64,000 bases of DNA, taken from assembly GCA_913052135.1 (NCBI GenBank), contig CAJXDY010000007.1:4141-68140 (forward strand). Direction: 5' to 3'. A model generated the notes under the pieces. That model was not told the origin of the DNA, did no database searches, and saw nothing but the letters and a program-made list of their open reading frames with translations. Of the stretch, positions 21,768 to 60,721 are shown one piece after another (the stretch's first letter is position 1; each line of letters starts with the position of its first letter). Source of the DNA: an uncultured Acidobacteriota bacterium. GTDB taxonomy: Bacteria > Acidobacteriota > Vicinamibacteria > Vicinamibacterales > UBA823. The translations under genes were made by a program, and so were the position numbers.

Positions 21768-22940
21768 ATGTCGCTCTCGCGTCGCGCATTTGTTCGCAGA
21801 TTAGGAATCAACCGAGCCAGTTCGTTTAACGGTGGATATATCGCCGCCCGAGGACGCGAGGCTATGGTTGCAGAGATGGCGCCAGGTGCGTTTAACGAAA
21901 GTCTCCTGCTGCCGCCTGAAGGCGACGAAATTCGCATTAGCAGTAATGAGAACCCGGTGGGTCCCGGCCCAGCAGCGTTTGAGGCGTTAGTCGAGGCCTT
22001 AGACGAAGGCGCCGGTCGTTATCCGACCAACGCGCGTCCTGGAATCGGAGATCTGGTGTCGCTTCTCGCCAGCAAGTATGGCGCAGAAAGACAGAACGTC
22101 ACGATCGGGACAGGCTCTGGTGAAATCCTCGAAAATGCCACCAAGGCGTTCACTGGACCGAACCGAGCACTGGTCACGGCTGATCCTTCGTACTTGCAGA
22201 CGGTAGGAGTTGCTCGGCAGTTCGGTTATCCGATCAAGACCGTACCGCTCGATGCCAATCTTCGCTTGGACTTGACTGCGCTGGCTAGCGCAGCCAAGGG
22301 CGCTGGGATGGTCTTTATGTGCAACCCGAACAATCCAAGTTCCACGGTGGTGGGAGCATCGGATGTTGAGGCATTTGTCGCAGAAGTGCGGCGCGTCTCA
22401 CCTGAAACCTACATCCTCATTGACGAGGCGTATCACGATTACGCCACGGACCCGAATCACCAGACGGCCATTCCACTCGCACTGCGAACGCCGCGTGTCT
22501 TTGTCGCACGGACGTTCTCGAAAGCGTACGGGATGGCTGGTTTACGACTGGGTTACGCGGTCGGCCACGCCGATACCATCGGAATTCTGTCTCGCTGGAC
22601 ACACGTGTTCAATACGAACAACTTTTCGAATGCAGCGGCTGTCGCATCGTTGAACGACCCGGATAATCTCGCCCAAGAAGTTGCGCGCAACACGGAAGCG
22701 CGTAACTACACGCGGAAGTTTTTCACCGATGCCGGTTATGAATCTGCTGACTCGCAGACGAACTTTCTCTTCGTCAATCTTGACAGACCGGCGAGTGAAT
22801 TTCGCGCTGCATGCGCTGAGCACAACGTGCACGTCGGTCGCGATTTTCCACCAATGGAAAAAACACACTGTCGGATCTCGATTGGCACAATGGACGAGAT
22901 GCGCAGGGCTACGGAAGTTTTCAAGCAGGTGCTGGCGTAG
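21768..22940 (+). CDS. HisC-like class I/II PLP aminotransferase with twin-arginine-type N-terminus (paralogue A)
   Basis: GAGGAGG SD. N-terminus MSLSRRAFVRRLG. Core blocks SSNENP, CNPNNPS, DEAYHDY and TFSKAYGMAGLRLGY (PLP lysine). Confidence 0.85.
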   Translation: MSLSRRAFVRRLGINRASSFNGGYIAARGREAMVAEMAPGAFNESLLLPPEGDEIRISSNENPVGPGPAAFEALVEALDEGAGRYPTNARPGIGDLVSLLASKYGAERQNVTIGTGSGEILENATKAFTGPNRALVTADPSYLQTVGVARQFGYPIKTVPLDANLRLDLTALASAAKGAGMVFMCNPNNPSSTVVGASDVEAFVAEVRRVSPETYILIDEAYHDYATDPNHQTAIPLALRTPRVFVARTFSKAYGMAGLRLGYAVGHADTIGILSRWTHVFNTNNFSNAAAVASLNDPDNLAQEVARNTEARNYTRKFFTDAGYESADSQTNFLFVNLDRPASEFRAACAEHNVHVGRDFPPMEKTHCRISIGTMDEMRRATEVFKQVLA

Positions 22941-22957
22941 ACGCACAGGCGTCTACG
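22936..22957 (+). other. Intercistronic GC-rich stem-loop between the two aminotransferase genes
   Basis: CGTAGACGC-ACAG-GCGTCTACG is a 9-bp stem with a tetraloop that overlaps the TAG stop of paralogue A. No U-tract follows, so it is not a classical terminator. Confidence 0.3.
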
Positions 22958-23042
22958 TGGAGTGAGTTGGGTTAAGTAGAAGTGAACAAACGTTCTGTCT
23001 GGGCAGGCACAACGGCCCGGAAAGTTTTTCGAGGAGGATGAC

Positions 23043-24212
23043 ATGTCGTTTTCACGACGCGCGTTTGTAAAGACTGTTGGGCTTGGCGGCGTAGCAGCAT
23101 TTTCGGGCAGCTATATCCCGCGGGCTTACGACCTACCAGAGTTTTGGACAGCAGAACTGCTGGCACAGGAACGTCCACTTTTACTACACAACAACGAGAA
23201 CCCGGCGGGTCCTGGCGAGCGAGCGCTCGCCGCGGCACGTGGCGTCCTCGGCGAGAATGGCGAAGGCGTCGGTCGCTACCCCTTCGCTGAGGCGAATGGG
23301 CTCTCGCGGGCCATCGCTGACCGTTTTGGTGTCGCACCGGCGAATGTGGTTCTTGGCTTGGGGTCGACGCAGGTTCTGCGCACGGCCGTGCAGGCGTATA
23401 CGTCGCCCATGAAACCGCTTGTGACGGCAACACCGACCTACGAAGAATGCACCCAATATGCGGAACTGATCGGATCACCTTTCACCGAGATCGGTTTAAA
23501 CGACAAGATGCAGTTGGATCTCAACGAAATGGCAGCAGCGGCACGGGAAGGTGCTGGACTTGTGTTCTTGAATAATCCGAACAATCCGACTGCCACGGTA
23601 CATGGAGAAGACGCCGTGATGGCCTTCATCGATGACGTGCTGACTGGTTCACCAGACACGACGATTCTGGTCGACGAGGCCTATCACGACTACGTCACCG
23701 ATGCGAGTCACAGGAGTCAAATCTCAACGGCACTGACGAATCCGCGGGTGATTGTGGCACGGACCTTCTCGAAGGCACATGGTATGGCCGGGATGCGCGT
23801 CGGCTACGGCATCGCTCATGAGGATACCGTGCGAGAGCTAATGCCATGGCACAGTTTTAACACCTTGAATGCTCTTGGCATTGCTGCAGGAACTGTGTCC
23901 ATTGGGGATACAGCGCGACTTGAAGCTGAATCCGTACGGAATACCGAGGCTCGCCAATTTACGATTGACTGGTTTAAAAACGCCGGTTTTGACGCGACTG
24001 ATTCGCAGACGAATTTCATTTTCGTCAATACGGGTATGGCAGCGCAGGAATTCCGCGATGGTGCTCGGGAAAATGGCGTGGCCGTTGGTCGCAACTTCCC
24101 ACCTTACGAAAAGGAGTGGGCACGCATTTCTATCGGGACCATGGGCGAGATGCGTCAAGCGGTCGAGGTTTTTGCGAAGGTTCTCCGGATCAACGCGACT
24201 GCAGCGGCTTAA
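23043..24212 (+). CDS. HisC-like class I/II PLP aminotransferase with twin-arginine-type N-terminus (paralogue B)
   Basis: GAGGAGG SD. N-terminus MSFSRRAFVKTVGLGGVAAFSGSY. Core blocks HNNENP, NNPNNPT, DEAYHDY and TFSKAHGMAGMRVGY. By eye it is roughly half identical to paralogue A. Confidence 0.85.
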   Translation: MSFSRRAFVKTVGLGGVAAFSGSYIPRAYDLPEFWTAELLAQERPLLLHNNENPAGPGERALAAARGVLGENGEGVGRYPFAEANGLSRAIADRFGVAPANVVLGLGSTQVLRTAVQAYTSPMKPLVTATPTYEECTQYAELIGSPFTEIGLNDKMQLDLNEMAAAAREGAGLVFLNNPNNPTATVHGEDAVMAFIDDVLTGSPDTTILVDEAYHDYVTDASHRSQISTALTNPRVIVARTFSKAHGMAGMRVGYGIAHEDTVRELMPWHSFNTLNALGIAAGTVSIGDTARLEAESVRNTEARQFTIDWFKNAGFDATDSQTNFIFVNTGMAAQEFRDGARENGVAVGRNFPPYEKEWARISIGTMGEMRQAVEVFAKVLRINATAAA

Positions 24213-24359
24213 GAGTATCTCCGTTTACTGATCTTGCGCACCGATCAACCAGTATCCGTGTACCGGTTCTGGATATACGCTTCTTCCTACGCATCCGCTC
24301 ACCTGTAGGTGGTTCGTACTCGGCGACAGAGCAGCCCGAGGGCTGATCAATAATCTCCC

Positions 24360-25706
24360 ATGAGCCAACCAGCGCCAGCACGGCTATCGCGGTCAATCAA
24401 TCTTACGCAAACGACGGCCATGGTGGTCGGGACCATTATTGGTGCGGCGATTTTTGTACAGCCTACCGAAATCACCAAACTCGTTCCGTCTTTAGGCGGG
24501 GTGGCCTTGATTTGGTTGCTCGCGGGAACATTAACTTTTTTTGGAGCGTTAGTATGCGCAGAACTCGCCTCCGCCTTTCCTCGCACTGGTGGCGTGTATG
24601 TGTTTCTGAATGAGACGTATTCGCCAGTCTTCGGATTTTTGTGGGGATGGGCGATGTTCTGGAGCATGCATTCCGGCATCCTTGCCGCCGTGGCCGTGGT
24701 GTTTGCGCGGTATCTGGATTATTTCATTCCGCTTGGCGACACGGGCATTCAGTTCGCGGCCGCCGGGGCCATTCTTGTTCTTTCAGCTGTGAATTATCGG
24801 GGCGTTGCCCACGGCAGTCGCCTACAAACGTTGTGCACGATCATTAAGGTATTGGCTATTTTTCTGATGATCGTAGTGGGCATGACGATGGTCTCCGGTG
24901 ACGCGGCTGCGGTTGGGACCAGCAGTAGCCTCGATGTGACCAGCACCTCTCCTGTCGACATTGTGCAGGCTCTCATTGCAGGATTGTTTGCGTTTGGTGG
25001 ATGGCACATGGTGACCTACGCCGCCGGTGAAACAATCGACCCAACGCGAAACATCCCTCGTGCGCTTATGTATGGATCGATTATCGTAACCGTCTGCTAC
25101 ATCGCCCTTAATGCGGTCTACATGTATATCTTGCCCCTCGATGTTGTTATTACTTCAACACGCGTCGCGGCTGACGCCGCGGATGTTGTGGTCGACGGCG
25201 GCGCCACGTTTATATCCGGCCTCGTCCTTCTCTCAACTTTTGGGGCCGTGAGTGGAATCATTTTGGCTGGACCTCGAGTTTACTTTTCGATGGCACAGGA
25301 TGGCGTGTTGTTCCCTTGGGCCGGAAAGGTGCACCCGGTCTACCGAACACCGCATCTGGCCATCGTGTTGCAAGGGGTCTGGGCGTCTGTGTTGGTGTTT
25401 ACCGGGTCGTATCAACAACTGTTTTCTCGCGTCATTTACGTGGAGTGGATTTTCTTTGGCATGATGGCTTGTGGTTTATTCTTGCTTCGTCGTCGCCCAA
25501 GTTACGCGCCGACTTATCGGATCAAGGGCTACCCGATGATTGCGGGACTTTTCGCCTTGTCTGCTGCCGTCATTGTCATTCAGCGTTTTATAGCTGAACC
25601 CTTGGAGGCAATTATCGGACTTGGTATCGTCCTCGTGGGCGTTCCTGTGTACTACTTGTGGCCGACTCATCGAAAAGGAGAAGCGACTCTTCGTGGCGAT
25701 CGTTGA
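24360..25706 (+). CDS. APC-superfamily amino acid permease
   Basis: 448-aa polytopic ORF. INLTQTTAMVVGTIIGAAIFVQP and TGGVYVFL blocks. It is a paralogue of the permease at 625-2028. Confidence 0.85.
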   Translation: MSQPAPARLSRSINLTQTTAMVVGTIIGAAIFVQPTEITKLVPSLGGVALIWLLAGTLTFFGALVCAELASAFPRTGGVYVFLNETYSPVFGFLWGWAMFWSMHSGILAAVAVVFARYLDYFIPLGDTGIQFAAAGAILVLSAVNYRGVAHGSRLQTLCTIIKVLAIFLMIVVGMTMVSGDAAAVGTSSSLDVTSTSPVDIVQALIAGLFAFGGWHMVTYAAGETIDPTRNIPRALMYGSIIVTVCYIALNAVYMYILPLDVVITSTRVAADAADVVVDGGATFISGLVLLSTFGAVSGIILAGPRVYFSMAQDGVLFPWAGKVHPVYRTPHLAIVLQGVWASVLVFTGSYQQLFSRVIYVEWIFFGMMACGLFLLRRRPSYAPTYRIKGYPMIAGLFALSAAVIVIQRFIAEPLEAIIGLGIVLVGVPVYYLWPTHRKGEATLRGDR

Positions 25707-26670
25707 TTTTCATAACCACTATTACCCGCCCACATACATCGATGCCGTTCGAGGTGGTGTCAGTTCCCTGAAGCATACGACAGACGATGAGGGCAATCCG
25801 GTGTTGTATTACCCGGGTGACTACAATGTCGTGGTGCCAGGGCATCGCGATATCGAGTTTCGCGAGGCTGTCCTGATCGAGCAGGGTATCGATAAGCAGG
25901 TACTCACCTTCACATCGCCTGGCACCCATGTCGAGACGCCGAAGGTTGCTGCGAAATTCGCTAGTCTTGTGAATGATGCGCTGGCTGAAATTAAAGCCAC
26001 GCGGTCTCGGTTTACCGCACTTGCGACCCTCCCCCTGAATGACCCGGATGCCTCCGTCAAAGAATTAGAGCGGGCGATGACCAGCCTCGGGTTTAAGGGA
26101 GTGATGTTGTTCAGTAATGTGAATGGCGTCGCACTCGCCGACGAACGCTATTGGCCGCTCTACGAGAAAGCGAACGAATTGGGTGCCGTCTGCTACATTC
26201 ACCCCATTCATCCAGTCGGCGTGGAGTCTATGACCGAGTACTGGCTGATGCCACTTGTCGGGTTTGTTCACGACACTACCCTAGCCGCTGCCAAGTTGGT
26301 GTTTACCGGAGTTGCCGAACGCTTTCCTCGTATCCGTTGGGTTCTGGCGCATTTGGGCGGCACGATTCCCTATCTCGCCGAACGGCTCGACCGTGGATTT
26401 CGGGCCTTCAAGGATTGCCGGCAGCACATTAGTGAACCACCGAGTACTTATTTAAAGCGATTTTATTACGACACCGTGAATTTCGATCAGCGAGCCTTAG
26501 AATTGGCTATCGAGTTTGCCGGTGTCGATCAGGTCCTGGCGGGCAGTGACTATCCCCACATGATCGGGAGCCTTGATCAGATGCAGGACAGTATTGCCGC
26601 GCTGACCATTTCTGAGAAGGACAAGGCGGCCATTCGGTGGGACAACACCGCCAAGCTACTCGGGTTTTAA
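25693..26670 (+). CDS. Amidohydrolase_2 (ACMSD/LigW-like decarboxylase family) protein
   Basis: VDFHNHYYP (HxH), IHPIHP, AHLGGTIPY and AGSDYPH blocks. Start placed at in-frame GTG 25693, giving a 14-nt overlap with the permease. The ORF-track start at 25621 lies inside the permease. Confidence 0.75.
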   Translation: MAIVDFHNHYYPPTYIDAVRGGVSSLKHTTDDEGNPVLYYPGDYNVVVPGHRDIEFREAVLIEQGIDKQVLTFTSPGTHVETPKVAAKFASLVNDALAEIKATRSRFTALATLPLNDPDASVKELERAMTSLGFKGVMLFSNVNGVALADERYWPLYEKANELGAVCYIHPIHPVGVESMTEYWLMPLVGFVHDTTLAAAKLVFTGVAERFPRIRWVLAHLGGTIPYLAERLDRGFRAFKDCRQHISEPPSTYLKRFYYDTVNFDQRALELAIEFAGVDQVLAGSDYPHMIGSLDQMQDSIAALTISEKDKAAIRWDNTAKLLGF

Positions 26671-26684
26671 CGCCACGGTCGCAG

Positions 26685-27017
26685 TCAGCGTCTATTCGAT
26701 GACTGCGACATGCTGACGACATACTCGTAGATCAGTACGATTTGTTCATCCGTGACATTTTCTTCAGCTTGGCCAGGCATTTCTCCGATCCCTTCGCGGA
26801 CGATCCTCGTGAAGGCTGCGAAGTCGAACTCCACCGGAATAAGTGAAGGCCCTTTCGCTCCTCGGGCGCTGGGCCCGTGACACATCACGCAACCAGCTTC
26901 GGATAATGCCTTCTTCCCTGGAGGGGTTTCGGGCTGTGCCCAGAGAACTCCAGCGCCGACTACCAAGCACACTATCAAGGTAAAGAGGCCGTAGCCCACA
27001 GTGCGCGTACCTTGCAT
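26685..27017 (-). CDS. Small exported class I c-type cytochrome
   Basis: Signal peptide (GLFTLIVCLVVGAGVLWAQP), a single haem motif C-V-M-C-H and a distal Met block (GIGEMPG). Its ATG overlaps the upstream TAA (TAATG). Confidence 0.8.
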   Translation of the reverse strand: MQGTRTVGYGLFTLIVCLVVGAGVLWAQPETPPGKKALSEAGCVMCHGPSARGAKGPSLIPVEFDFAAFTRIVREGIGEMPGQAEENVTDEQIVLIYEYVVSMSQSSNRR

Positions 27018-28282
27018 TAGAACGTTTCAGCCTTCAGTTTGAATGTCGCGTCCAATTCCGGGTCGGTTGCTTGGCCCGTGACGCGCCGTGCGACGTAATC
27101 ACCGAGCATGATGCCGTGCTTGTATCCGTGACCTGATCCTCCGCCGACAATCCATACGTTCTCCATGTCGGGATGGTGATCGACGATGAAATGATCGTCG
27201 ACGCTCGTTTCGTACTGGCACACGCGAGATTCAAGCAGTGGCTGACCGCGCAGAGCGGGGAACCACTTGTCCAGAAATTCGCGGGCACGCCCGACTTCAT
27301 TCTCGGTCACCAGTCGTTCATCCGTGTCCGGGTCGAACGGAATGCTGTCGTAAACCGTCGCAAATTTCAGGCCGCGTCCCTCGATGCTGGGAAACCCGTA
27401 CACACCAGCCATTGAAAAATTCGGACAGTTTGGGTGGGTGAATCGATTGTCATCGGGCGGAACACCATACCAAAATGTCGACCGTCGAGGTGTCACGAGG
27501 CGATCTTTCATGGGATTTGGGAGCACTTTCGGCAACCAGGGACCACATGCGAAAACGAAGTTTTCGGCGGCAATTGTTTGTCCCGTTGACAACGTTATCT
27601 CCTGCAACTGTCTGCCCGCTTGCCGTCCCGGCTTCGCTTTTGCGAGGATGAACTCGCCACCTTTGCGTTGGAAGTCCTCGGCTACGGCGAAACAGCCTCG
27701 CCTTGCCATGAGTACGCCGGTACTGGGCAAATAATACCCAAAATCAATACCGTCGAGATTGAACTGGGGATACTGCCGGGCAACCTCATCGTGTTCGATG
27801 ACTTCGTTTTCGACTCCGAGCTTAGTGAGCACGGTCTGTGTGGCCCGGAAGGACCGAGACCCCCCTTCCCGGTACAACGAGAGCTGACCAGTCCGGTAGA
27901 ACAATGGGAGTCCACCCCACTCTTCCTGCCGCGCTTCCCAGCGCTTAAAGGCTTCAATCACCCACCGCGTATAAATTTCTCGTTCACCATACCCGGCACG
28001 AATCTGCCTGGTTTCACCACCCGAGGCCGCACGGGCGTTTCCTGGTCCGTAAGCATCGATCAACGCGACCGACAAGCCCATCTCACGCAAGTAGAGAGCC
28101 GCCCATCCGCCGAAGGCCCCGGCGCCGATAACGGCGACGTCTACGGTCGATGGGTTGGCGGCTTGACGATGGTTTATTGACTTCATAGGTTCGCTTGCCT
28201 CCAGGCGTTTTCCGGCCAAGGCCATTAAGCTAATGTTTCCACCGCTATATTTCAGAAATCGGCGGCGATTTAATTTGTCCAT
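27017..28282 (-). CDS. Tat-leader FAD-dependent oxidoreductase (DAO / sarcosine-oxidase-like family)
   Basis: MDKLNRRRFLKYSGGNISLMALAG matches the RRxFLK Tat consensus. Dinucleotide fold VAVIGAGAFGGWAALYL...D, then SGGETRQIR. Start moved to ATG 28282. Confidence 0.8.
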   Translation of the reverse strand: MDKLNRRRFLKYSGGNISLMALAGKRLEASEPMKSINHRQAANPSTVDVAVIGAGAFGGWAALYLREMGLSVALIDAYGPGNARAASGGETRQIRAGYGEREIYTRWVIEAFKRWEARQEEWGGLPLFYRTGQLSLYREGGSRSFRATQTVLTKLGVENEVIEHDEVARQYPQFNLDGIDFGYYLPSTGVLMARRGCFAVAEDFQRKGGEFILAKAKPGRQAGRQLQEITLSTGQTIAAENFVFACGPWLPKVLPNPMKDRLVTPRRSTFWYGVPPDDNRFTHPNCPNFSMAGVYGFPSIEGRGLKFATVYDSIPFDPDTDERLVTENEVGRAREFLDKWFPALRGQPLLESRVCQYETSVDDHFIVDHHPDMENVWIVGGGSGHGYKHGIMLGDYVARRVTGQATDPELDATFKLKAETF

Positions 28283-28436
28283 GGATTGCTCTCCGTCAGT
28301 TGATACTGCCCACACGTTTCGAAAATTCGAAACGATTCATAGGGTATCATCAGATCAGCCGAATAAAGTCGGCTACGTAACTTCTATTGAGTTGTCCGTG
28401 TCCACACCCGATCGCACAATTAATGGAGCATGCACC

Positions 28437-28805
28437 ATGTTGACGAAACCGTTTTATTGCCTTGCCGTGGTGGTTGTTGTTGCCACCGTTCTGCTCGTCG
28501 GTCAAGAATCACAAACCCGTCGGGCTCCGCAATTCGAGAATGAACACGTGAAGGTTTGGAAAAGCATCATTCTTCCAGATCAGCCACTTCGGATGCATCG
28601 ACATGAGCATGCCCGTGCGCTGATCGCCTTGACTGACGCCACCCTCGACATTGTGCAGGATTCAGGGAAGACGGAGACTGTTCATTGGGAAGCCGGCAAG
28701 GCGTACTGGTTGACTCACGACGAACCTGACACCATGCACGCCGATGTGAATAACACTGGCCAACCCATTGAAGTAATCGTTGTGGAACTCAAAAACGATC
28801 GGTAG
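28437..28805 (+). CDS. Small exported cupin-domain protein
   Basis: ATG 28437 gives MLTKPFYCLAVVVVVATVLLVG (a signal or anchor), followed by a cupin-like pattern (HVKVWKSIILPDQPLRMHRHEH...WEAGKAYW...HADVNNTGQPIEVIVVEL). Confidence 0.55.
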   Translation: MLTKPFYCLAVVVVVATVLLVGQESQTRRAPQFENEHVKVWKSIILPDQPLRMHRHEHARALIALTDATLDIVQDSGKTETVHWEAGKAYWLTHDEPDTMHADVNNTGQPIEVIVVELKNDR

Positions 28806-28853
28806 GCCTCAACATCTCGCGTCAGCAATGTGCTCAACCATTGCGGCTGGCAG

Positions 28854-31433
28854 TCACTGCGGCGCTGTCCGCGGCGGTGCTGGCACTGGGGGCTGGTTTT
28901 TTTCGAGGTTTAATTCCTTGATATCCGGATCCCACTGGAGATCGCCGAGGAGATGTTCGACGAAGTACTCTGCCCGCAACCAGAACCAGTAATCTGCCAT
29001 CTCTCGATAACTATGGCGTTGACCTGGGAACATAAAGAAATCAAAACGTTTGTTCGCCTTAATCAGCGCTTCCGCCATTCTCAAGGTGCCCGCCGGGTGC
29101 ACGTTGTTATCGATGTCACCCGTCGTCAGCAGTAAATGCCCCTGTAGATTCGCTGCAAGATCCGAATTCTTATCGATGTCATACTCGAAACTCACTTCGC
29201 CGTCTTCGTCCATCACTTCCTTGATCCCGTGATGTTTCTCGGACCAAAAGCTGTTGTACACGTCGTTATTGTGATTACCAGACGACGACACCGCTACCTT
29301 GAATAAATCAGGATAGACGAGCATCGCTGCCGTCGACATAAATCCACCGCCTGAATGACCATAAATGCCGACACGGTCACGGTCGATAAAGTCATGGCGG
29401 TCGGCGAGCTGCTCGATGGCAACCTTCTTGTCAGCAAGTCCATAGTCACGGAGGTTGCCGTACCCATAGTTGTGATACCACTTGGAACGCGCGGGATGGC
29501 CACCGCGGTTTCCGACCGTTACTACCACGAAGCCAAATTGGGCCAGCGCTGTTTCGTAGCGATTCGTCGAAAATGACTTCGAAACTGATTCTGTCTGAGG
29601 TCCCGGGTAGACGAATTCGATAATGGGATACTGTTTCGTCGGGTCGAAGTCGAATGGCTTATACATGACCCCGTACAGGTCCGTGATGCGATCAGCGGCC
29701 TTCACGCTGTAAGGCTCTGGAAACTGATAGCCAGCTGCTAACAACTGGGAAAAATCCGCCTCCTCTAAGTCGAGTATTTTTCTTCCGTTGGCATCAATCA
29801 CAACCGAACTCGGAACCGTGTTGACCCGCGAGTAATTGCCGACGAAAAATCGGTTGGACTCCCCTACCTGAACTCGATGGTCAAAATTACCCGGGTCGAG
29901 GAGTTGAACGCCACTGCCGTCAAGATTGACTCGATATAGGTGCTGGTAGTAAGGGTCTTCCTGGGGCTCACGGGCATTTGCCATGATGTAAACCACACCC
30001 TCGGACTCATCGATGCCCACCACTCGTCGAACGGCCCAGGGGCCTTCGGTTAAGCGATTTTGCAACGTGCCATCCGAGTTGTAGCGGTAGAGATGTGCCC
30101 AGCCGTCTCGCTCTGACCACCAGAGCAAGTCGCCTGACTCTAGGCGTTCGAGTGGCTGCGTCTCCACGTATGTGTTCAATTCTTCTTCGAGCAGTACGCG
30201 GACTGCACCTGTCGTAGTGTCCACAACACAAACCTCGACCCGGTGCCGATCACGGCTTTGACGCCAGAAATGTAACTCGGTTGAAATGTTCGAGAGCCAG
30301 AGGTTCTGGTCGGGTTCATCGCTATCCGGATATTCGAATATCCGAGCGTTCCAGATCCCCAGTTGCTGATCTTTGAATTTTTCGGTATCGACCGTTAGCA
30401 TCTGCTGGGTTGCGAAATCGTAGATGCGAAGTTCGCGTTGGGTGATCACTTCTTCTCCAGCCATGTCGTACTTGTAGGTCTCCAGTTCGGGGCGCTTGTT
30501 TCCCACGGAGTGAATGACCCACAAGTCACCGGTCTGACGCTGATCTCGGCGCACGATCGCGAAGCGCTGCGAGTTATGAGCCCAGGAGATGTTGGCGTGT
30601 TTACGCTTTTCGCGGTCTTCTTCTTTCTCTATGTCAGTTTTACCGCGAGCAGTGTCAGCGTAGCTGTAGTGTTCTTCGCCGTCTGTCGAGAGCTGGACTT
30701 CTTCCACTTCAATTTTCTCTTCCGCCTCGTCCGCCTCGTCGCCATCCTTACCGCGTCGCGCATCGAGAATCTGCTGGTAGGCTTCGCTGGTCATCGTGTG
30801 AAGGTTATGATTGCGGGCAAAGACAACCACCTGGCCGTCAGGGGACACGCTAGCCCACGCAGGGTGATTATCGGGGCCTTCCCAGTCTGCAAGTTGCCGA
30901 ACACTTCGAGTTACCACGTCGTATTCGAAGTGAAATACCTGCTTCTTGACGGTTTCCTCTTGATCGGTGTCGCCGTCATCTTCCTCTTGCTGTTCTTCTT
31001 CGGTTTGGTCGATGTCGGTGCGTTCTTCGTCTTGGGACGACTCGACTTCAAACTGGAGTGTGTCCTCATCGATAAACTTGATGCTTCGAATTGGCAAGTG
31101 CTTTCCGTCCCAGGGATCCTTCGTGAGTCGCGTGAGTTCGGCAGCAATACGGTCGTTATCAAATAGCAGTGTCTTGGTGCCTTGCGCCGGGTCCACTAAG
31201 TAGAATGATTTACCCTCTGAAGTTTCCCACTCGTACCAGAAGCGGTCACTTCCCTTGATCCAATGAGGGTTAGTAGTGGTGCTATAGATGAGCCGGTTCA
31301 ACTTGTACGGCGCGAATCGACTTGCAAGTTGGTAGTTTGCAGTCAGCGCCGCTTGATTTTCCTGGCCGGCGAACGTTACTAAGGGAAGAGTTAGCAAGAG
31401 CAGGAAGCCAATCATCCACGTATCAAGTTTCAT
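28854..31433 (-). CDS. Exported S9 family serine peptidase (DPP-IV-like propeller + prolyl-oligopeptidase catalytic domain)
   Basis: Signal peptide (IGFLLLLTLPLVTFAG), nucleophile elbow GIYGHSGGGFMS, and C-terminal GDIDNNVHP / FPGQRHS blocks carrying the Asp/His of the triad. Contains acidic insertions. Confidence 0.85.
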   Translation of the reverse strand: MKLDTWMIGFLLLLTLPLVTFAGQENQAALTANYQLASRFAPYKLNRLIYSTTTNPHWIKGSDRFWYEWETSEGKSFYLVDPAQGTKTLLFDNDRIAAELTRLTKDPWDGKHLPIRSIKFIDEDTLQFEVESSQDEERTDIDQTEEEQQEEDDGDTDQEETVKKQVFHFEYDVVTRSVRQLADWEGPDNHPAWASVSPDGQVVVFARNHNLHTMTSEAYQQILDARRGKDGDEADEAEEKIEVEEVQLSTDGEEHYSYADTARGKTDIEKEEDREKRKHANISWAHNSQRFAIVRRDQRQTGDLWVIHSVGNKRPELETYKYDMAGEEVITQRELRIYDFATQQMLTVDTEKFKDQQLGIWNARIFEYPDSDEPDQNLWLSNISTELHFWRQSRDRHRVEVCVVDTTTGAVRVLLEEELNTYVETQPLERLESGDLLWWSERDGWAHLYRYNSDGTLQNRLTEGPWAVRRVVGIDESEGVVYIMANAREPQEDPYYQHLYRVNLDGSGVQLLDPGNFDHRVQVGESNRFFVGNYSRVNTVPSSVVIDANGRKILDLEEADFSQLLAAGYQFPEPYSVKAADRITDLYGVMYKPFDFDPTKQYPIIEFVYPGPQTESVSKSFSTNRYETALAQFGFVVVTVGNRGGHPARSKWYHNYGYGNLRDYGLADKKVAIEQLADRHDFIDRDRVGIYGHSGGGFMSTAAMLVYPDLFKVAVSSSGNHNNDVYNSFWSEKHHGIKEVMDEDGEVSFEYDIDKNSDLAANLQGHLLLTTGDIDNNVHPAGTLRMAEALIKANKRFDFFMFPGQRHSYREMADYWFWLRAEYFVEHLLGDLQWDPDIKELNLEKNQPPVPAPPRTAPQ

Positions 31434-54298: not shown

Positions 54299-56053
54299 TT
54301 GGATACCGTTGCGACACTCGATCACTCACACGCGGATCACGAGCACACGGCGAGTTGGTGGCGAACTTACGTGTTTTCCGTTGACCATAAGGTCATCGGG
54401 ATCCAGTACGCGATCACAGCTCTAGTGTTCCTGTTACTTGGCTTCATTCTCATGATGATGATGCGCTGGCAGATCGCGTATCCCGGACAGCCCATTCCGT
54501 GGATAGGTCAGTTCTTAGGCAGTGCTAATGCCCCTGGCGGTATCATGCTGCCAGAGTTCTACAACCAGCTCGGCGCCATGCACGGTACGATCATGGTGTT
54601 TTTGGGCGTTGTGCCGCTAGCGGTTGGTGGCTTTGGCAACTATGTCATGCCGCTCCAGATCGGTGCACCCGACATGGCATTCCCACGCCTGAACATGGCA
54701 AGTTATTGGAGCTATTTTGTGGGCGGCGTAGTGATGTTGTTAAGTTTCTTCGCGCAGGGTGGCGCAGCGAATTCTGGGTGGACCTCGTATGCTCCGCTTT
54801 CAATTATCGCAACGTCTGGCCAAACCTGGTGGCTCTTCGGTATGGTGTTTCTGATCACGTCTTCGCTACTCGGTTCGGTTAACTTTATCGTCACCATTAT
54901 TCAGTTGCGTGCGCCCGGGCTGACTTTCATGCGGTTGCCATTTTTTGTCTGGACGCAATTGGTCACGGGTTTCCTGTTGCTTCTCGCTTTTCCACCGCTC
55001 GAATCCGCGGCCGTTCTGCAGTTGATGGACCGACTTGCGGGTACGAGTTTCTTCATGCCAAGCGGTCTGGTCGTAAGTGGTGCAGTAGTTGACGTGTCAG
55101 GTGGTGGCAATCCACTCCTGTGGCAGCACTTGTTCTGGTTTCTAGCGCATCCAGAGGTGTATGTCTTGATATTGCCTGCACTTGGCATCACTGCGGAGAT
55201 CATCGCCAACAACACTCGAAAGCCGCTTTGGGGCTATCGTGTGATGGTCTATTCGTTGATATTCCTTGGCTTCATGTCGTTTCTCGTTTGGGCGCACCAC
55301 ATGTTTTTAACCGGCATGGGGACCGCGATTAGTGCATTCTTCCAGACGACCACGATGATTATTTCCATTCCGTCTGTCGTGATTCTCTCAGCGCTGTTTA
55401 TCTCGCTGTACGGAGGTTCAATCCGCTTTACAACGCCGATGCTCTTCGCGTTGGCTTTCATGCCCATGTTTGGTATTGGGGGCTTAACAGGTCTACCGCT
55501 TGCTTTTTCGCTGCCAGATCTACATCTTCACGACACCTATTACGTCATCGGGCACTTCCATTACGTAGTGGCTCCAGGCACGATCTTTGCGCTATTTGGG
55601 GGTATTTATTACTGGTTTCCAAAAGCAACCGGCCGCAAGATGAATGACCTGCTTGGGAAGATCCACTTTTGGGGTACGTTCGTCTGCATGAATGGGATCT
55701 TTTTTCCGATGCTGATCCAGGGACTGGCCGGAATGAATCGCCGGATGTACGACGGTGCTAAAGATTACCAACACACGGCGGGCGTTTTGGTTTGGAACGA
55801 AACCATTTTTCATTTTGCGGTGGCGATGGCTGTCTTCCAACTCTTCTTTATTGTGAATTTTTTCTGGAGTATGAAGAAGGGCGCCAAGGTAACGTCGGAC
55901 AATCCATGGAAGGCTACGACACTGGAGTGGGCGACACCAACCCCGCCGCCACATGGCAATTTTGTAACGCCGCCGGAAGTCCATCGTGGGCCGTACGAGT
56001 ACAGCGTACCAGGTGCGGTGCAAGACTTTACGCCACAGAACGAACGACGCTAG
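54299..56053 (+). CDS. ctaD: Cytochrome c oxidase subunit I (A1-type haem-copper oxidase)
   Basis: VDHKVIGIQY, WFLAHPEVYVLILPALG (Glu of the D-channel motif), VWAHHMF and GHFHYVV blocks. TTG start with AAGGAG 8 nt upstream. Confidence 0.95.
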   Translation: MDTVATLDHSHADHEHTASWWRTYVFSVDHKVIGIQYAITALVFLLLGFILMMMMRWQIAYPGQPIPWIGQFLGSANAPGGIMLPEFYNQLGAMHGTIMVFLGVVPLAVGGFGNYVMPLQIGAPDMAFPRLNMASYWSYFVGGVVMLLSFFAQGGAANSGWTSYAPLSIIATSGQTWWLFGMVFLITSSLLGSVNFIVTIIQLRAPGLTFMRLPFFVWTQLVTGFLLLLAFPPLESAAVLQLMDRLAGTSFFMPSGLVVSGAVVDVSGGGNPLLWQHLFWFLAHPEVYVLILPALGITAEIIANNTRKPLWGYRVMVYSLIFLGFMSFLVWAHHMFLTGMGTAISAFFQTTTMIISIPSVVILSALFISLYGGSIRFTTPMLFALAFMPMFGIGGLTGLPLAFSLPDLHLHDTYYVIGHFHYVVAPGTIFALFGGIYYWFPKATGRKMNDLLGKIHFWGTFVCMNGIFFPMLIQGLAGMNRRMYDGAKDYQHTAGVLVWNETIFHFAVAMAVFQLFFIVNFFWSMKKGAKVTSDNPWKATTLEWATPTPPPHGNFVTPPEVHRGPYEYSVPGAVQDFTPQNERR

Positions 56054-56071
56054 GAGAGGACGCAGAGAGTT

Positions 56072-56662
56072 ATGGAAATTCCGTATACCGTTGAAAATAG
56101 GGAAGATACAGGCCTGAATAACGTCAAGCTCGGGATCTGGTTATTCCTTGCGTCCGAAGTGATGCTGTTTGGCGGGCTGTTTTCTTCCTATGTGCTCCTG
56201 CGCGTCGGCGCCGAGACTTGGCCGGTTGGGGCCTCGATCTTGTCGGTGCCTATCGCAACGTTCAATACGGTTGTGTTGATTGCGTCGAGTGTGACAATGG
56301 TCATGGCTTGGGCGTCGCTTAAGATGAATGACTTTGGTAAGTTTAGGTTATACCTCGGTTCAACGGTCGGACTGGCAGTGCTCTTTCTGGTTGTAAAAGC
56401 GTACGAATATGCCGATAAATTTTCGCACGACCTCTATCCTGCCGAGAGTACCTTCTTGGCGATTTATTTTACGGTGACGGGCCTGCATGCCTTGCATATC
56501 GTAGGTGGCATCGTTGTGAACGGTTATTTTGTTGGACCAGGTAGCAAGATGTGGAAAACTGCGCCGGAGCAGTTCACAAATCGAATCGAAGCAGCCGGTC
56601 TCTATTGGCATTTCGTGGATCTTGTCTGGATTTTTCTGTTCCCGGTGTTGTATCTGCTATAG
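56072..56662 (+). CDS. ctaE: Cytochrome c oxidase subunit III
   Basis: KLGIWLFLASEVMLFGGLFSSY, TGLHALHIVGG and GLYWHFVDLVWIFLFPVLY blocks. Confidence 0.9.
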   Translation: MEIPYTVENREDTGLNNVKLGIWLFLASEVMLFGGLFSSYVLLRVGAETWPVGASILSVPIATFNTVVLIASSVTMVMAWASLKMNDFGKFRLYLGSTVGLAVLFLVVKAYEYADKFSHDLYPAESTFLAIYFTVTGLHALHIVGGIVVNGYFVGPGSKMWKTAPEQFTNRIEAAGLYWHFVDLVWIFLFPVLYLL

Positions 56663-56703
56663 AACTCGAGTTGATCTAGCGTTGAGGGTAGGTGGGAGGC
56701 AAC

Positions 56704-57006
56704 ATGAGTGGTACAAGCGCGGACGAAATAAGAAAACACGTTAAGGTTTATGTCATGGTGTTCGTCGCACTAATGGTGCTAACGGTCGCGACGGTCGGCG
56801 TGTCCTATCTAGCCTTGTCTATTCCTTTGGCAATCCTAGTGGCGTTGGTCGTTGCAACGATTAAGGGTTCACTTGTCGCTCGCTATTTCATGCACTTGGT
56901 CGGTGAAAAGAAAGCCGTTACCTGGTCCTTAGTGCTCACGGCCGTGTTTTTCTGTGTGTTGATGTTCATACCGCTCTTTGCGATGCTCGATCATACTGGC
57001 CAGTAA
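56704..57006 (+). CDS. Prokaryotic cytochrome c oxidase subunit IV family protein
   Basis: The ATG at 56704 follows GGGAGG. It has three TM helices with the KHVKVYVMVFVALMVLTVATV...ATIKGSLVARYFMHL pattern of the bacterial CoxIV family. Confidence 0.7.
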   Translation: MSGTSADEIRKHVKVYVMVFVALMVLTVATVGVSYLALSIPLAILVALVVATIKGSLVARYFMHLVGEKKAVTWSLVLTAVFFCVLMFIPLFAMLDHTGQ

Positions 57007-57025
57007 TGTTTGAAAGTTTTTAAGC

Positions 57026-57235
57026 ATGTCACTCAAAAGCGTCCACTTATTTTTTATTATTGCGTCAGCCGTTCTGAGCCTATTGATGGGGGTCTGGGCG
57101 GCGAATGCGTATCGCTCAGGATTTGAGTCTTTGAATTATCTTGTAACGGCAGCGGTTTCATTACTTGTTGCCGGGCTGCTTGCCAGGTACGCAGTGTTGT
57201 TCGCCCGCAGGGCTCGCAGAATCGGTCTTGACTAA
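57026..57235 (+). CDS. Small two-TM hypothetical protein inside the oxidase operon
   Basis: 69-aa ORF with two hydrophobic helices and a basic C-terminus (ARRARRIGLD). No obvious SD. Its position between subunit IV and subunit II supports expression. Confidence 0.4.
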   Translation: MSLKSVHLFFIIASAVLSLLMGVWAANAYRSGFESLNYLVTAAVSLLVAGLLARYAVLFARRARRIGLD

Positions 57236-57254
57236 GGAGGGACGGGAAACGGTT

Positions 57255-57530
57255 ATGTTTGGTCGATTGGGTTTTCGGACGATGTTTGCAACCGTTGCGC
57301 TGTGCGCACTCACGGCACCCACAGTTTTGGCGTGTCCGGTTTGTTTTGGAGCGGTCGAGTCGCCGATGATTGACGGAATGAATTGGGCAGTCTTCTTATT
57401 ACTGGGCGTACTTTCGACAGTGGCGACCGGCTTTGTGATGTTTTTCGTGCGCTTATCCAAGTTAGCACGGGTGAGTGCGGAGTCAGCAACCGTGGTGCGT
57501 GGACGAACGCAGCACGAAGGGAGTTACTAA
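57255..57530 (+). CDS. Small membrane protein with CPVC motif inside the oxidase operon
   Basis: The ATG at 57255 follows AAGGAGG (57234-57240, 14-nt spacer). Signal-like MFGRLGFRTMFATVALCALTAPTVLA, then C-P-V-C-F-G and a TM helix (WAVFLLLGVLSTVATGFVMFFV). Its stop abuts the subunit II ATG. Confidence 0.5.
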   Translation: MFGRLGFRTMFATVALCALTAPTVLACPVCFGAVESPMIDGMNWAVFLLLGVLSTVATGFVMFFVRLSKLARVSAESATVVRGRTQHEGSY

Positions 57531-58280
57531 ATGCGGGAATTTCTAGGGCTGCCACCTCAGGCATCGGCACACGCCCCACAAGTTGATCAAATGATTGTGT
57601 ATATCCACTGGCTTATGCTGGTCTTGTTCGTTGGGTGGGGCTTGTTTTTTCTGTACACATTGTGGCGTTTCCGTGCGTCGAAAAACCCAACAGCTGACTA
57701 CGCCGGTGTGAAGAGTCACACCGCCAGCTATTTGGAGGTCGGCGTTGCGCTCGTCGAAGCGGTGCTGCTGATTGGTTTCGCCATTCCAGCGTGGGCCACA
57801 CGCGTCAACGAGTTTCCGGCTGAAACTGACTCGACCATCGTGAACGTCGTCGCCAAACAATTCGAGTGGCACATCCATTATCCGGGTCCGGATGGTATGT
57901 TCGGTCGTAAGGATCTAAGCCTGATTACACCGACGAATGCGATCGGCTTAGATCGGTCAGATCCGTACGCAGTCGACGACATCGCGACCATCAATCAACT
58001 CAACCTCCCCGTGGGTAAGCCGACCATCGTGCACTTAACAACGCAAGATGTCATTCACAGCTTTGCTATTTCGACACTGCGTGTTAAGCAGGATGCCATT
58101 CCTGGCATGGAGATCCCAGTGTGGTTCGTACCCACAGTCGTCGGTGATTACGAAATCAATTGCTCACAGCTTTGTGGTCTTGGACATTATCGGATGCGAG
58201 GCTTCGTAAAAATCCAAACGGAAGAGGAATTTGAGGCCTTCCTCGCTGAAGAAGCGGCGTTATTACAGGGCGCCGACTAG
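57531..58280 (+). CDS. ctaC: Cytochrome c oxidase subunit II (CuA subunit, no fused cytochrome c domain)
   Basis: Two N-terminal TM helices. The CuA pattern H-x34-C-S-Q-L-C-G-L-G-H-Y-R-M was counted directly in DVIHSF...EINCSQLCGLGHYRM. Confidence 0.9.
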   Translation: MREFLGLPPQASAHAPQVDQMIVYIHWLMLVLFVGWGLFFLYTLWRFRASKNPTADYAGVKSHTASYLEVGVALVEAVLLIGFAIPAWATRVNEFPAETDSTIVNVVAKQFEWHIHYPGPDGMFGRKDLSLITPTNAIGLDRSDPYAVDDIATINQLNLPVGKPTIVHLTTQDVIHSFAISTLRVKQDAIPGMEIPVWFVPTVVGDYEINCSQLCGLGHYRMRGFVKIQTEEEFEAFLAEEAALLQGAD

Positions 58281-58315: not shown

Positions 58316-60721
58316 CTACAGCTCTAGCGACCGTAGTCGTAACGCGTTCGTGATGACTGATAGAGAACTGAGTGTCATCGCTGCACTTGCCCATATCGGA
58401 TCGATGAACCATCCGGTTAGCGGATACAGCACACCGGCAGCCACTGGCACACCGATGCCGTTATAGATAAATGCGAGAAATAAGTTCTGACGAATATTGC
58501 GTAGTGTGCTGCGACTGAGTCGACGGGCGCGGGCAATACCTCGCAAATCTCCCTTGACAAGAGTGATGTCAGCGCTCTCAATGGCAATATCAGCTCCGGT
58601 TCCCATAGCAATTCCCACTGCAGCTTCTGCAAGTGCCGGTGCATCATTGATACCGTCACCAGCCATGGCAACGACCCGCCCTTCGGCTTGCAGACTTGCC
58701 ACAATCCGCTGTTTTTCTTCTGGCAAGACGCCTGCCCGAACTTCGTTGAGGCCGAGGGTGTCTCCGACTGCGTGCGCGGTTAAAGCATTGTCACCAGTCG
58801 CCATTACAATCCGTACACCCTCCGCTTGTAGCATGCGCAACGCTTCGAACGTAGATGGTTTTACGGCATCCGACACACTCAAAAAGCCGGCTAGTTGCCC
58901 GTCAACGGCAAGAAAAATAACAGTCTGTCCTTGGTGACGAAGTTCATTGGCCTGATGCGCAAAGACATCCGTGTGAACTCCATGCTCTATTAAAAACTCT
59001 TCTGTGCCTAATAATACATGTCGCTTCTCGACCGTTCCTTCGACACCTCTTCCTGGCACGGTTTGGAAATTTTCAACTTCGGGTAAGGCCATGTCCTGTT
59101 CGATCGCTCGTGTGACAACCGCTACGGCTAGTGGGTGTTGACTGGACTGCTCAAGAGCTCCTGCCAACCGTAAAAGCTTCGTTTCTGAGACGACGCCTTC
59201 AATCGTTGAAATACTCGCTACGCGTGGACGGCCTTCGGTGAGAGTCCCAGTTTTGTCGATGACGAGAACCTCCACACGGTCCAACATTTCTAGCGCTGCC
59301 GCATGTTTGACGAGTACCCCAGACTTTGCACCACGTCCAGTACCCACCATGATAGCCATCGGGGTTGCTAGTCCGAGTGCGCAGGGACAAGCGATGATAA
59401 GCACGGCTACAGCGTTGACCAGGGCGGTTACAAACCGTGGTTCTGGACCCCAGAGACTCCACACAACGAGCGTGACGATTGCCACGAGTACAACACTCGG
59501 CACAAACCATTCAGACACGCGATCGGCAACACGTTGAATAGGAGCGCGAGTTCGCTGCGCGTTGGCAACCATTTGCACGATGTGCGCCAAAAGGGTCTCT
59601 GAGCCAATACGCTCAGCCCGCATCGTGAAGCTTCCCGTCCCATTGATCGTGGCACCGATTACTTGGGTTCCGACGGTTTTTTCAACCGGGATCGCCTCAC
59701 CCGTTACCATGGATTCATCGACCGCGCTGGCGCCGTTCACCACGACACCATCGACCGGAATTTTGTCGCCAGGTCTGACCCGCAACAAATCGCCGACCTT
59801 CACGAGCGCCAACGGCACATCGGTATCGTGACCAGGCAGCACAACCCTGGCTGTTTGAGGAGACAGGCTCAGTAATGAGCGGATCGCTGCTCCGGTGCGG
59901 TGCCGGGCCCGACTTTCCAGCACTTGACCTAACAGGACCAACACCGTAATTGCTACTGCAGTTTCAAAATAGGTGGGCACGCCGTGATCAGTCTGGAATC
60001 CTTCCGGAAACCACCGTGGATTAACAGTTGCTGCGACGCTGTACACAAATGCCGAGCCGACTCCCATGGCAATCAGCGTAAACATATTGGCACTGGTATT
60101 TTTCAGCGAGGCCCAGGCTCGCTCAAAAAATGGCCAGCCAGCCCACAGTACGACTGGAGTGGTAAAGATAAACTGGAGCCAGTTGCTAAGTGGACGACTG
60201 ACTGTTTCCTGCATCCGCGCACCAAACACCATGTCACCCATTGCTAGCAAGAACACAGGGAAGCCGAAGCCCACGCCGATCCAGAATCGACGGGTCATGT
60301 CGATCAATTCCGAGTTAGGTGTTTCCTGTACGTCGATTGCATGTGGTTCCAGTGTCATACCGCATGACGGACAGGTTCCGGGCAGAGTAGTCACAACCTC
60401 AAGGTGCATCGGGCAGATGTACTCAACGGCGCGGGTCGGGAGTGGTGCCACTTCCGGTTCGAGCGCCATGCCACATCTGGGGCAAGGACCTGGTTTGTCT
60501 GCCCTGACTTCGGGATCCATTGGACAGACGTAGACAGTATCTGGCGATGTTGGGGCGGCATTCGCCGACTGCGTGGGATGCAAGTACTGTTCCGGGTCGG
60601 TCTTGAATTTTTCTAGGCAGTGGGCACAACAAAAGCCGTAGGTTTGGTCAGCATAGATAAATTGGTGGGCTGTCGCAGCGAGATCGACCGACATCCCACA
60701 AACGGGATCAAGTGTTTCCAT
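58316..60721 (-). CDS. copA: Copper-translocating P1B-type ATPase with non-classical N-terminal metal-binding modules
   Basis: [12 protein letters not shown] (CPC), [16 protein letters not shown] (HP) and [10 protein letters not shown]. The N-terminus carries a TRASH/YHS-like Cys motif plus two Y-x-C-P-M...C-P-x-C-G-M-x-L-E-P modules. Confidence 0.9.

Follow-up and report, generated by a model that had tools for sequence, protein, structure and literature searches.

A twin-arginine-leader flavoenzyme of the sarcosine oxidase type and a small cytochrome c encoded as a conserved two-gene unit in an uncultured Acidobacteriota bacterium

We analyzed a 64,000-nucleotide stretch of DNA from an uncultured Acidobacteriota bacterium (Vicinamibacteria; Vicinamibacterales; UBA823), here called the window (positions 4,141 to 68,140 of contig CAJXDY010000007.1, assembly GCA_913052135.1), with regard to two adjoining genes on its minus strand which code for a flavoenzyme and a small cytochrome c. 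The window is contig C7 of the analyzed genome, which has a size of 2.39 Mb and is 91% complete. We found that these genes form a real, conserved two-gene unit. Judged by its sequence, the flavoenzyme is a distinct branch, with a twin-arginine translocation (Tat) leader, of the monomeric sarcosine oxidase (MSOX)/N-methyltryptophan oxidase (MTOX) group of family PF01266. We consider it moderately probable that it is a periplasmic amino-acid dehydrogenase, probably acting on a secondary amine, which reduces the cytochrome c of its own operon as NicA2 reduces CycN, in another flavoenzyme family. The combination of a Tat-exported flavoenzyme with a cytochrome is known from nicotine-degrading enzymes. 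For the MSOX-type family no such description was found: our literature search, judged by titles and abstracts, returned no paper on a Tat-exported or cytochrome-linked sarcosine-oxidase-type enzyme.

The features of the locus are collected in Table 1. The first-pass annotation, which was made from the DNA letters alone, had placed here a flavoenzyme gene and a cytochrome c gene overlapping as TAATG, and both genes, their coordinates and the overlap were borne out by open reading frames (ORFs), translations and Pfam matches. The overlap suggests that the two genes are translationally coupled. The N-terminus of the flavoenzyme is MDKLNRRRFLKYSGGNISLMALAG (opening with MDKLNRRRFLK); an alternative GTG start would give a 432-aa protein, but the N-termini of homologues match the ATG position instead. 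On the 3' side of the pair a convergent Amidohydro_2 gene ends 14 nt away, and on the 5' side lies a divergent gene of 122 codons; thus, the pair is a self-contained two-gene unit. A promoter and terminator scan of 26400–28900 gave matches not above the shuffled expectation, and none in the intergenic region 5' of the flavoenzyme. Metatranscriptome contigs from four libraries of four studies (depths 2–18) covered parts of both genes; these are assembled contigs, which carry neither strand, transcript ends nor expression level, may include carried-over DNA and are uninformative where they leave a stretch uncovered. One of them, from a 96%-identical relative, spanned the junction (26979–27502), and such a contig cannot show strand, ends or a single transcript.

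Table 1. Coordinates of the flavoenzyme–cytochrome c pair and of other features in the window.
Feature	Position	Strand	Description and basis
Flavoenzyme gene P0001	27020–28282	minus	421-codon ORF from ATG at 28282; PF01266, MSOX/MTOX-like
Flavoenzyme stop codon TAA	27017–27019	minus	Sequence
Tat leader, residues 1–31	28190–28282	minus	NRRRFLK motif, weakly hydrophobic h-region, candidate signal-peptidase sites ALA↓G and LEA↓S (by eye)
Shine-Dalgarno-like GGAGAG	28289–28294	minus	6 nt 5' of the flavoenzyme ATG; sequence
TAATG junction	27015–27019	minus	Stop TAA 27017–27019 and start ATG 27015–27017, one base in common
Cytochrome c gene P0002	26688–27017	minus	110 aa, Sec-type signal peptide, mature part of about 82 aa; stop codon 26685–26687
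Haem-binding motif CVMCH, cytochrome residues 43–47	26877–26891	minus	Translation
aa3-type cytochrome c oxidase	54299–58280	plus	COX1 54299–56053, COX3 56072–56662, COX2 57531–58280; possible downstream acceptor; Pfam
Convergent block	21768–26670	plus	Two class I/II aminotransferases with SRRAFV leaders, APC amino-acid permease, Amidohydro_2; Pfam
Divergent 122-aa exported protein	28437–28805	plus	No Pfam match; cupin-like by language-model features only

Conservation of the pairing was surveyed in 60 relatives searched with both proteins, and by a maximum-likelihood tree. Placement by profile and phylogeny, which the first-pass annotation had proposed as a check, put the enzyme in PF01266 and within an orthologue clade of eight rows (support 100). 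The cytochrome gene directly followed the enzyme gene in four of these eight: G000 (the genome of the window) and G002, which belong to the same genus, G003 (UBA823) and G005. The junction has a 1-nt stop/start overlap as TAATG in the window and as TGATG in G002, G003, L138 and L142, and a gap of a few nt in G005. Since the overlap is kept even though the stop codon has changed, it appears to be more than chance. The pair occurred with the same flanks on four further contigs (three with P0125, one with P0142), with entirely different flanks on the P0140 contig, and in the order cytochrome–enzyme, with an ATGA overlap, on the P0150 contig. Taking genomes and contigs together, about 10 of the 14 inspected contexts of this cytochrome family adjoin this flavoenzyme family; one member, P0146, is a fragment of 66 aa and has no enzyme of this kind in its vicinity. 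A pairing not conserved in relatives would, by the first-pass annotation, have refuted the proposal, and this was not the outcome: the overlap recurs across genera and the pair moves as a unit, in one contig into different flanks. However, only half of the sampled orthologues have the pair, and in some lineages the cytochrome is retained although the enzyme is missing. In L142 (1743–3001) and in the P0140 contig, the flavoenzyme beside the cytochrome was called as two ORFs (265 + 164 aa and 281 + 131 aa); by sequence, these split calls would be either assembly frameshift errors or decaying genes in the two metagenome contigs.

PF01266 covers residues 48–400 of the flavoenzyme over the whole profile (positions 1–353 of 353, E 1.1e-48), and the GxGxxG motif is GAGAFG at residues 53–58. 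By sequence, the solved structures closest to it are those of monomeric sarcosine oxidases (E 6e-38), and N-methyltryptophan oxidase comes next; identity to MSOX/MTOX is about 25%. The AlphaFold2 model (predicted TM-score (pTM) 0.78) matched MSOX 1zov with a TM-score of 0.83 and MTOX 2uzz with 0.78–0.81, and the D-amino-acid-oxidase/sarcosine-oxidase-like fold claimed from the letters was thereby supported. PF01593, the family of the amine-oxidase superfamily, was absent among the Pfam matches listed at E up to 1. Scores for SolA (NF008425, 213.1 bits against a cut-off of 257) and for MSOX (TIGR01377, 150.1 against 479.65) stayed under the NCBIfam cut-offs, so the protein represents a separate subfamily and is an orthologue of neither. 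L-pipecolate oxidase AmaA, glycine oxidase ThiO and D-amino-acid dehydrogenase DadA were rejected as identities, with NCBIfam scores far under their cut-offs. MSOX numbering was transferred through a HMMER alignment and an alignment of 103 sequences. In that numbering, the clade of the window's enzyme keeps R49, R52, Y55, Y254, K265, C315, Y317, H345 and K348, while H45 is replaced by Gly and H269 by Val or Ser. Cys315 of MSOX, which carries covalent flavin adenine dinucleotide (FAD) as 8-alpha-S-cysteinyl, corresponds to C355 by alignment and is Cys in all eight orthologues; FAD is probably attached covalently through Cys355. R92, R95, K306 and K388 align with Arg49, Arg52, Lys265 and Lys348 of MSOX, respectively, and are conserved. 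In MSOX, Arg52 and Lys348 bind the substrate carboxylate, and Arg49 and Lys265 lie on the flavin side. Because these two ligands are kept, the substrate is most likely an amino acid.

Export of the flavoenzyme by the Tat system, predicted from sequence, is well supported on comparative grounds. In 45 homologues of 58–96% identity R6, R7 and F9 were invariant and L10 nearly so, whereas the following 30 residues varied freely; the twin-arginine leader noticed in the first pass therefore proved to be a real, selected motif. In the AlphaFold2 model, residues 1–42 lie outside the folded part with a predicted local distance difference test (pLDDT) value below 50, and include a short helix at residues 6–13. 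The motif RR-x-[FLVIMG]-[LIVMF] was present in 78 of 103 sampled family members. In contrast, a coherent related clade of 25 rows (about 383–395 aa) had neither N-terminal extension nor RR motif, these leaderless relatives being about 35 residues shorter at the N-terminus. TatC is encoded in the genome. Besides, contig C47 of the same genome (3971–10397, L002/L003) carries two further MSOX-like paralogues with Tat leaders, 57% and 37% identical to the window's enzyme, which are divergent and have a short-chain dehydrogenase gene between them. In the 57% paralogue the cysteine for covalent FAD is lost (ISP for VCQ); after this gene come those of an exported protein with a creatininase fold and of a CLQCH protein, and a Tat-leader pyridoxal-phosphate C–S-lyase-like gene lies on the other side.

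The 110-aa partner, described in the first pass as a signal-peptide cytochrome c with the motif CVMCH, is by sequence a predicted exported class I monohaem cytochrome c. It matched PF13442 (E 1.5e-11) and PF00034 (E 4.7e-6), both above the cut-offs. Its leader is hydrophobic and of Sec type, ending by eye at LWA↓Q, and C43, C46, H47 and M80, the last within GEMPG, were invariant in 29 homologues. Cytochrome c maturation genes (PF01578) are present in the genome. The family is narrow, with only 28 homologues in 5.8 billion proteins by a search which needs shared 5-residue words. Its nearest named relatives are weak: SorU (4pw9_B, E 8e-4; NCBIfam 29 bits), the dedicated acceptor of periplasmic sulfite dehydrogenase, and PchC (1dii_C, E 0.058), the cytochrome subunit of p-cresol methylhydroxylase. 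The unlinked orthologue in G006 (L120, 2998–3342), as well as P0124 and P0127, has a leader with a lipobox-like SAGC, and this form of the cytochrome may be membrane-anchored.

From the gene anatomy, family placement, conserved motifs and recurrence of the pair, we infer export of the flavoenzyme, flow of its electrons to the cytochrome and the class of its substrate, and propose the following route. The flavoenzyme would take up FAD in the cytoplasm, probably covalently at Cys355, and would be exported in folded form by the Tat system, while the cytochrome c would be exported by Sec and receive its haem in the periplasm. There, the flavoenzyme would oxidize the C–N bond of an amino acid, which by family is most likely a secondary amine, e.g., an N-methyl or cyclic amino acid. 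The reduced flavin would be reoxidized by the cytochrome c in two one-electron steps, and the cytochrome would pass the electrons to a terminal oxidase such as the aa3-type enzyme of the window. In this way, respiratory energy would be gained and no periplasmic H2O2 formed.

The foremost alternative is that the protein is a periplasmic oxidase which transfers electrons to O2 and forms H2O2 as MSOX does, the cytochrome being a general soluble carrier that merely shares the operon. We regard this as unlikely, although several observations lean toward it and weigh against a cytochrome-dependent dehydrogenase. The equivalent of Lys265 is Lys (K306) in all eight rows of the window's clade by alignment, and R49, R52, Y254, C315, Y317 and K348, the remaining active-site residues of MSOX as an oxidase, are kept too; by sequence, the window's enzyme bears no sign of suppressed O2 reactivity. 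The retained K306 lends no support to a dehydrogenase and counts mildly against a strict one. Besides, 57 of the 78 sampled Tat-leader members keep the lysine equivalent and have no cytochrome neighbor, so that linkage is the minority state. An adjoining cytochrome is missing from the orthologues in G006, G008, G009 and G022: G006 has a cytochrome orthologue of 70% identity, but at a distance of 9.6 kb and on the opposite strand, and in G008 an MFS transporter gene is found in the place of the cytochrome. The P0139 and P0148 contigs keep the cytochrome beside the Amidohydro_2 block, with the flavoenzyme gene absent, and the genome of the window has at least four other small cytochrome c frames. 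Tat-only members of the amine-oxidase superfamily also proved to be oxidases, fast with O2 (PMC12224317). However, an adjoining cytochrome was the stronger predictor of a dehydrogenase in the same study (PMC12224317). The conservation of the stop/start overlap across genera, the narrow cytochrome family found mostly beside this enzyme family, the movement of the pair as a unit to other flanks and the independent linkage to a cytochrome in two further clades all argue against this alternative.

One of these further clades (G004, G007 and L143) has about 47% identity to the window's enzyme and shares a larger clade with it (support 99). It has a homologous cytochrome (42% identical) directly upstream, and in G022 this cytochrome lies within 2 kb; in L143 the stop of the cytochrome gene and the start of the enzyme gene overlap as ATGA. 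The other is a Gemmatimonadaceae branch (L031, L032, L033, L053 and L089) with an upstream cytochrome c of 164–221 aa, which is only marginally similar to the window's cytochrome and belongs to a different family, hence a separate recruitment. Thus, as read from the sequences, three clades have gained or retained a linkage to a cytochrome, in two gene orders and with cytochromes of two families. The two other clades differ from the window's at a position of interest for O2 reactivity. Mutation of Lys265 in MSOX lowers oxidase activity, according to a passage in PMC7312611 that cites Zhao et al. 2008. The K265M and K265R mutant structures of MSOX were among the fold matches of our flavoenzyme model. 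In the alignment, all 25 leaderless members have Lys at this position, all four members of the 47%-identical cytochrome-linked clade (L131, L132, L125 and L133; G007, G004 and G022) have Gly, and all five members of the Gemmatimonadaceae cytochrome-linked clade, together with six of its kin, have Arg; these counts come from related rows and stand for two or three events, not 17. In the two cytochrome-linked clades that lack the lysine, its replacement by Gly or Arg is consistent with a turn away from O2, and it may mark in the sequence that an oxidase has become a dehydrogenase. This residue is not decisive, since dehydrogenases of NicA2 type have the corresponding lysine as well. A comparison of the 103 aligned sequences for columns common to all three cytochrome-linked clades and rare elsewhere gave three weak ones (161, 408 and 419), none of them a known active-site position. 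In G004 (L132, 4624–6768) we observed a 714-aa fusion protein directly after the cytochrome–flavoenzyme pair, with a 7-nt overlap; it joins a glucose/sorbosone-dehydrogenase propeller, a cytochrome c domain and a glyoxalase-fold domain.

A second alternative concerns the nature of the contact between the two proteins, which could form a stable flavocytochrome c, i.e., a tight periplasmic heterodimer as in p-cresol methylhydroxylase or flavocytochrome c sulfide dehydrogenase. Translational coupling would fit a 1:1 stoichiometry, and the cytochrome has its weak similarity to PchC. Modeling of the complex, which the first-pass annotation had put forward, also leans this way and supports the pairing, weakly in both cases: the mature parts of enzyme and cytochrome, folded with FAD and haem from custom alignments, reached a score of 0.54, compared with 0.00 for the best of three controls. 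For calibration, 80 solved complexes and 110 mismatched pairs were used, of which 58 and 2, respectively, came up to the mark; only 7 of the 80 complexes did so with a score of 0.60 or under, as did both passing mismatches. Agreement of contacts among runs was at least 82%, and pLDDT of the cytochrome partner was at least 81. The model moves the odds only slightly. On the other hand, each partner occurs without the other in some genomes or contigs, which is unexpected for obligate subunits; no fused form was seen among the inspected loci, and the known pairs of NicA2/CycN type are transient. We consider a stable heterodimer very unlikely. Finally, that the enzyme stays in the cytoplasm as an MSOX-like oxidase, with a chance RR motif and an unrelated cytochrome gene, is scarcely credible: the leader scored 10.9 bits for Pfam TAT_signal (cut-off 22.7), its h-region is weakly hydrophobic and, by eye, it has no certain classical AxA site, but the RR-x-F motif is invariant amid a variable leader, leaderless relatives begin some 35 residues later, the leader falls outside the fold in the model, and the same genome encodes two paralogues with RR leaders.

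With regard to the terminal acceptor of the cytochrome-dependent dehydrogenase that we favor, the aa3 oxidase is encoded in the window as first described. Its COX2 (249 aa) has the CuA motif C-x3-C-G-x2-H-x2-M, no CxxCH and no fused cytochrome c domain, so that a soluble cytochrome c could plausibly serve as its donor. The operon cytochrome may pass its electrons to this oxidase. The further claim that the oxidase would need a donor of this kind did not stand as a dependence on this protein, since at least four other small cytochromes c are encoded; the operon cytochrome was ruled out as the only soluble donor, and for the same reason to call it dedicated is to go by inference. The gene order of the oxidase is unusual (COX1, COX3, a 104-aa membrane protein, a 121-aa ORF, COX2), and in the CuA loop of COX2, CSQLC, Gln takes a position that is usually Glu. 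The oxidase genes are followed, on the opposite strand, by the gene of a copper P-type ATPase (58316–60721).

The convergent block adjoins the pair in G000, G002, G003, G005, L138–L140 and L142. Both of its tandem aminotransferases (21768–24212) start with the twin-arginine motif SRRAFV, with a clear hydrophobic region only in the second. Its Amidohydro_2 ORF, taken from the first TTG, has 86 nt (25621–25706) in common with the end of the permease gene; gene callers on related contigs gave 325 aa for this protein, and the true start is probably about 24 codons later. The divergent 122-aa gene adjoins the flavoenzyme gene in G000, G002 and L138–L140, and lies about 2 kb upstream in G003. Neither this 122-aa neighbor nor a 429-aa ORF had a Pfam match at E up to 10; by language-model features, the 122-aa protein matched "Cupin 2" clusters with a score of 0.99, possibly including its own cluster, and it could be a third component of the system. 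On the 5' side of the enzyme, G000 and G002 have the 122-aa cupin-like gene and DPP-IV, while G003, G005, G008 and L142 have Amidohydro_3 with or without a metallo-beta-lactamase-fold gene; Amidohydro_3 of G003 and G005, whose N-termini were read, has a lipobox leader. As the upstream neighbors differ between genera, the context names no single substrate. The neighbor genes suggest periplasmic processing of peptides or amino-acid derivatives. The surrounding genes, which code for TonB-dependent receptors, peptidases (DPP-IV and M14), aminotransferases and APC permeases, indicate that the organism scavenges peptides and amino acids. Near-identical DNA was found mostly in runs labelled as marine or seawater metagenomes.

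Taken together, these neighbors allow a more extended reading, which we regard as quite unlikely. The pair would be the redox end of a periplasmic module for amino-acid deamination, in which the Tat-leader aminotransferases would gather amino groups from many amino acids on one 2-oxo acid. The MSOX-like enzyme would reoxidize the resulting amino acid and, which is an attractive possibility, regenerate the acceptor, its electrons passing through cytochrome c to the aa3 oxidase; such a cell would respire on amino acids outside the cytoplasm with neither NAD nor peroxide involved. At the same time, at least three switches from oxidase to cytochrome-dependent dehydrogenase would have taken place in the MSOX-like family, two of them with loss of the O2-activating lysine and one, in the window's clade, with the lysine kept.

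The system is of interest mainly for what it could reveal on how a classic family of oxidases controls its reactivity with O2. Enzymes of MSOX type serve as models of flavoprotein oxidases and find wide use in biosensors. If the proposed function is correct, "oxidases" that are really dehydrogenases, as recently found in the amine-oxidase superfamily, would occur in a second large family of flavoenzymes. Leaderless members, Tat-only members and three cytochrome-linked clades, one keeping the O2-activating lysine and two with it replaced, make up a comparison set which could show how the protein controls the O2 reactivity of flavin. Acidobacteriota and Gemmatimonadota of sea and soil, which are abundant, may draw periplasmic respiratory energy from amino-acid derivatives and form no H2O2 in doing so. 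Also, oxygen-insensitive dehydrogenases of sarcosine or proline type would be attractive for electrochemical sensors.

Several known systems resemble the pair in part. MSOX of Bacillus (1zov, 1el5 and 2gb0) and MTOX/SolA (2uzz) share with the flavoenzyme the two-domain fold, the GxGxxG motif and active-site residues. These oxidases are cytoplasmic and use O2. In contrast, the window's enzyme has a Tat leader and linker of about 45 residues and is in an operon with a cytochrome c. PchCF (1dii) and flavocytochrome c sulfide dehydrogenase likewise combine a periplasmic flavoprotein with a small mono- or dihaem cytochrome c from an adjoining gene. PchCF has the vanillyl-alcohol oxidase/p-cresol methylhydroxylase fold and flavocytochrome c sulfide dehydrogenase belongs to the disulfide-reductase family; both are unrelated to the PF01266 enzyme and form stable complexes. 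In the cluster lao-cccA-ridA of Gluconacetobacter diazotrophicus PAL5, the gene of an amino-acid-oxidizing flavoenzyme is reported to lie together with a cytochrome c gene and to be expressed along with it (PMC5053998). The lao product is annotated as an L-amino acid oxidase; the cluster includes a RidA gene, whereas none was seen adjoining the window's pair, and the evidence given there is genetic (loss of indole-3-acetic acid production) rather than on electron transfer (PMC5053998). A parallel already drawn in the first-pass annotation is NicA2/Pnao with CycN of Pseudomonas putida S16, together with more than 100 related Tat-leader dehydrogenases of the amine-oxidase superfamily (PMC12224317, PMC9396064). 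Kinetic tests in that superfamily showed a Tat leader, combined with a Sec cytochrome c from the operon, to be predictive of cytochrome-dependent dehydrogenases (PMC12224317), and the window's pair has both features. The NicA2/CycN pair and, as proposed here, the window's pair each consist of a Tat-exported FAD enzyme acting on C–N bonds and an operonic Sec cytochrome c as acceptor, with electrons going to respiration. Unlike NicA2, which belongs to PF01593, the window's enzyme is a PF01266 protein with probably covalent FAD, and its substrate is probably a carboxylate-bearing amino acid (R52 and K348 kept) and not an alkaloid amine. As in the amine-oxidase superfamily, leaderless oxidase relatives and Tat-only relatives occur alongside the cytochrome-linked enzymes in the family of the window's flavoenzyme.

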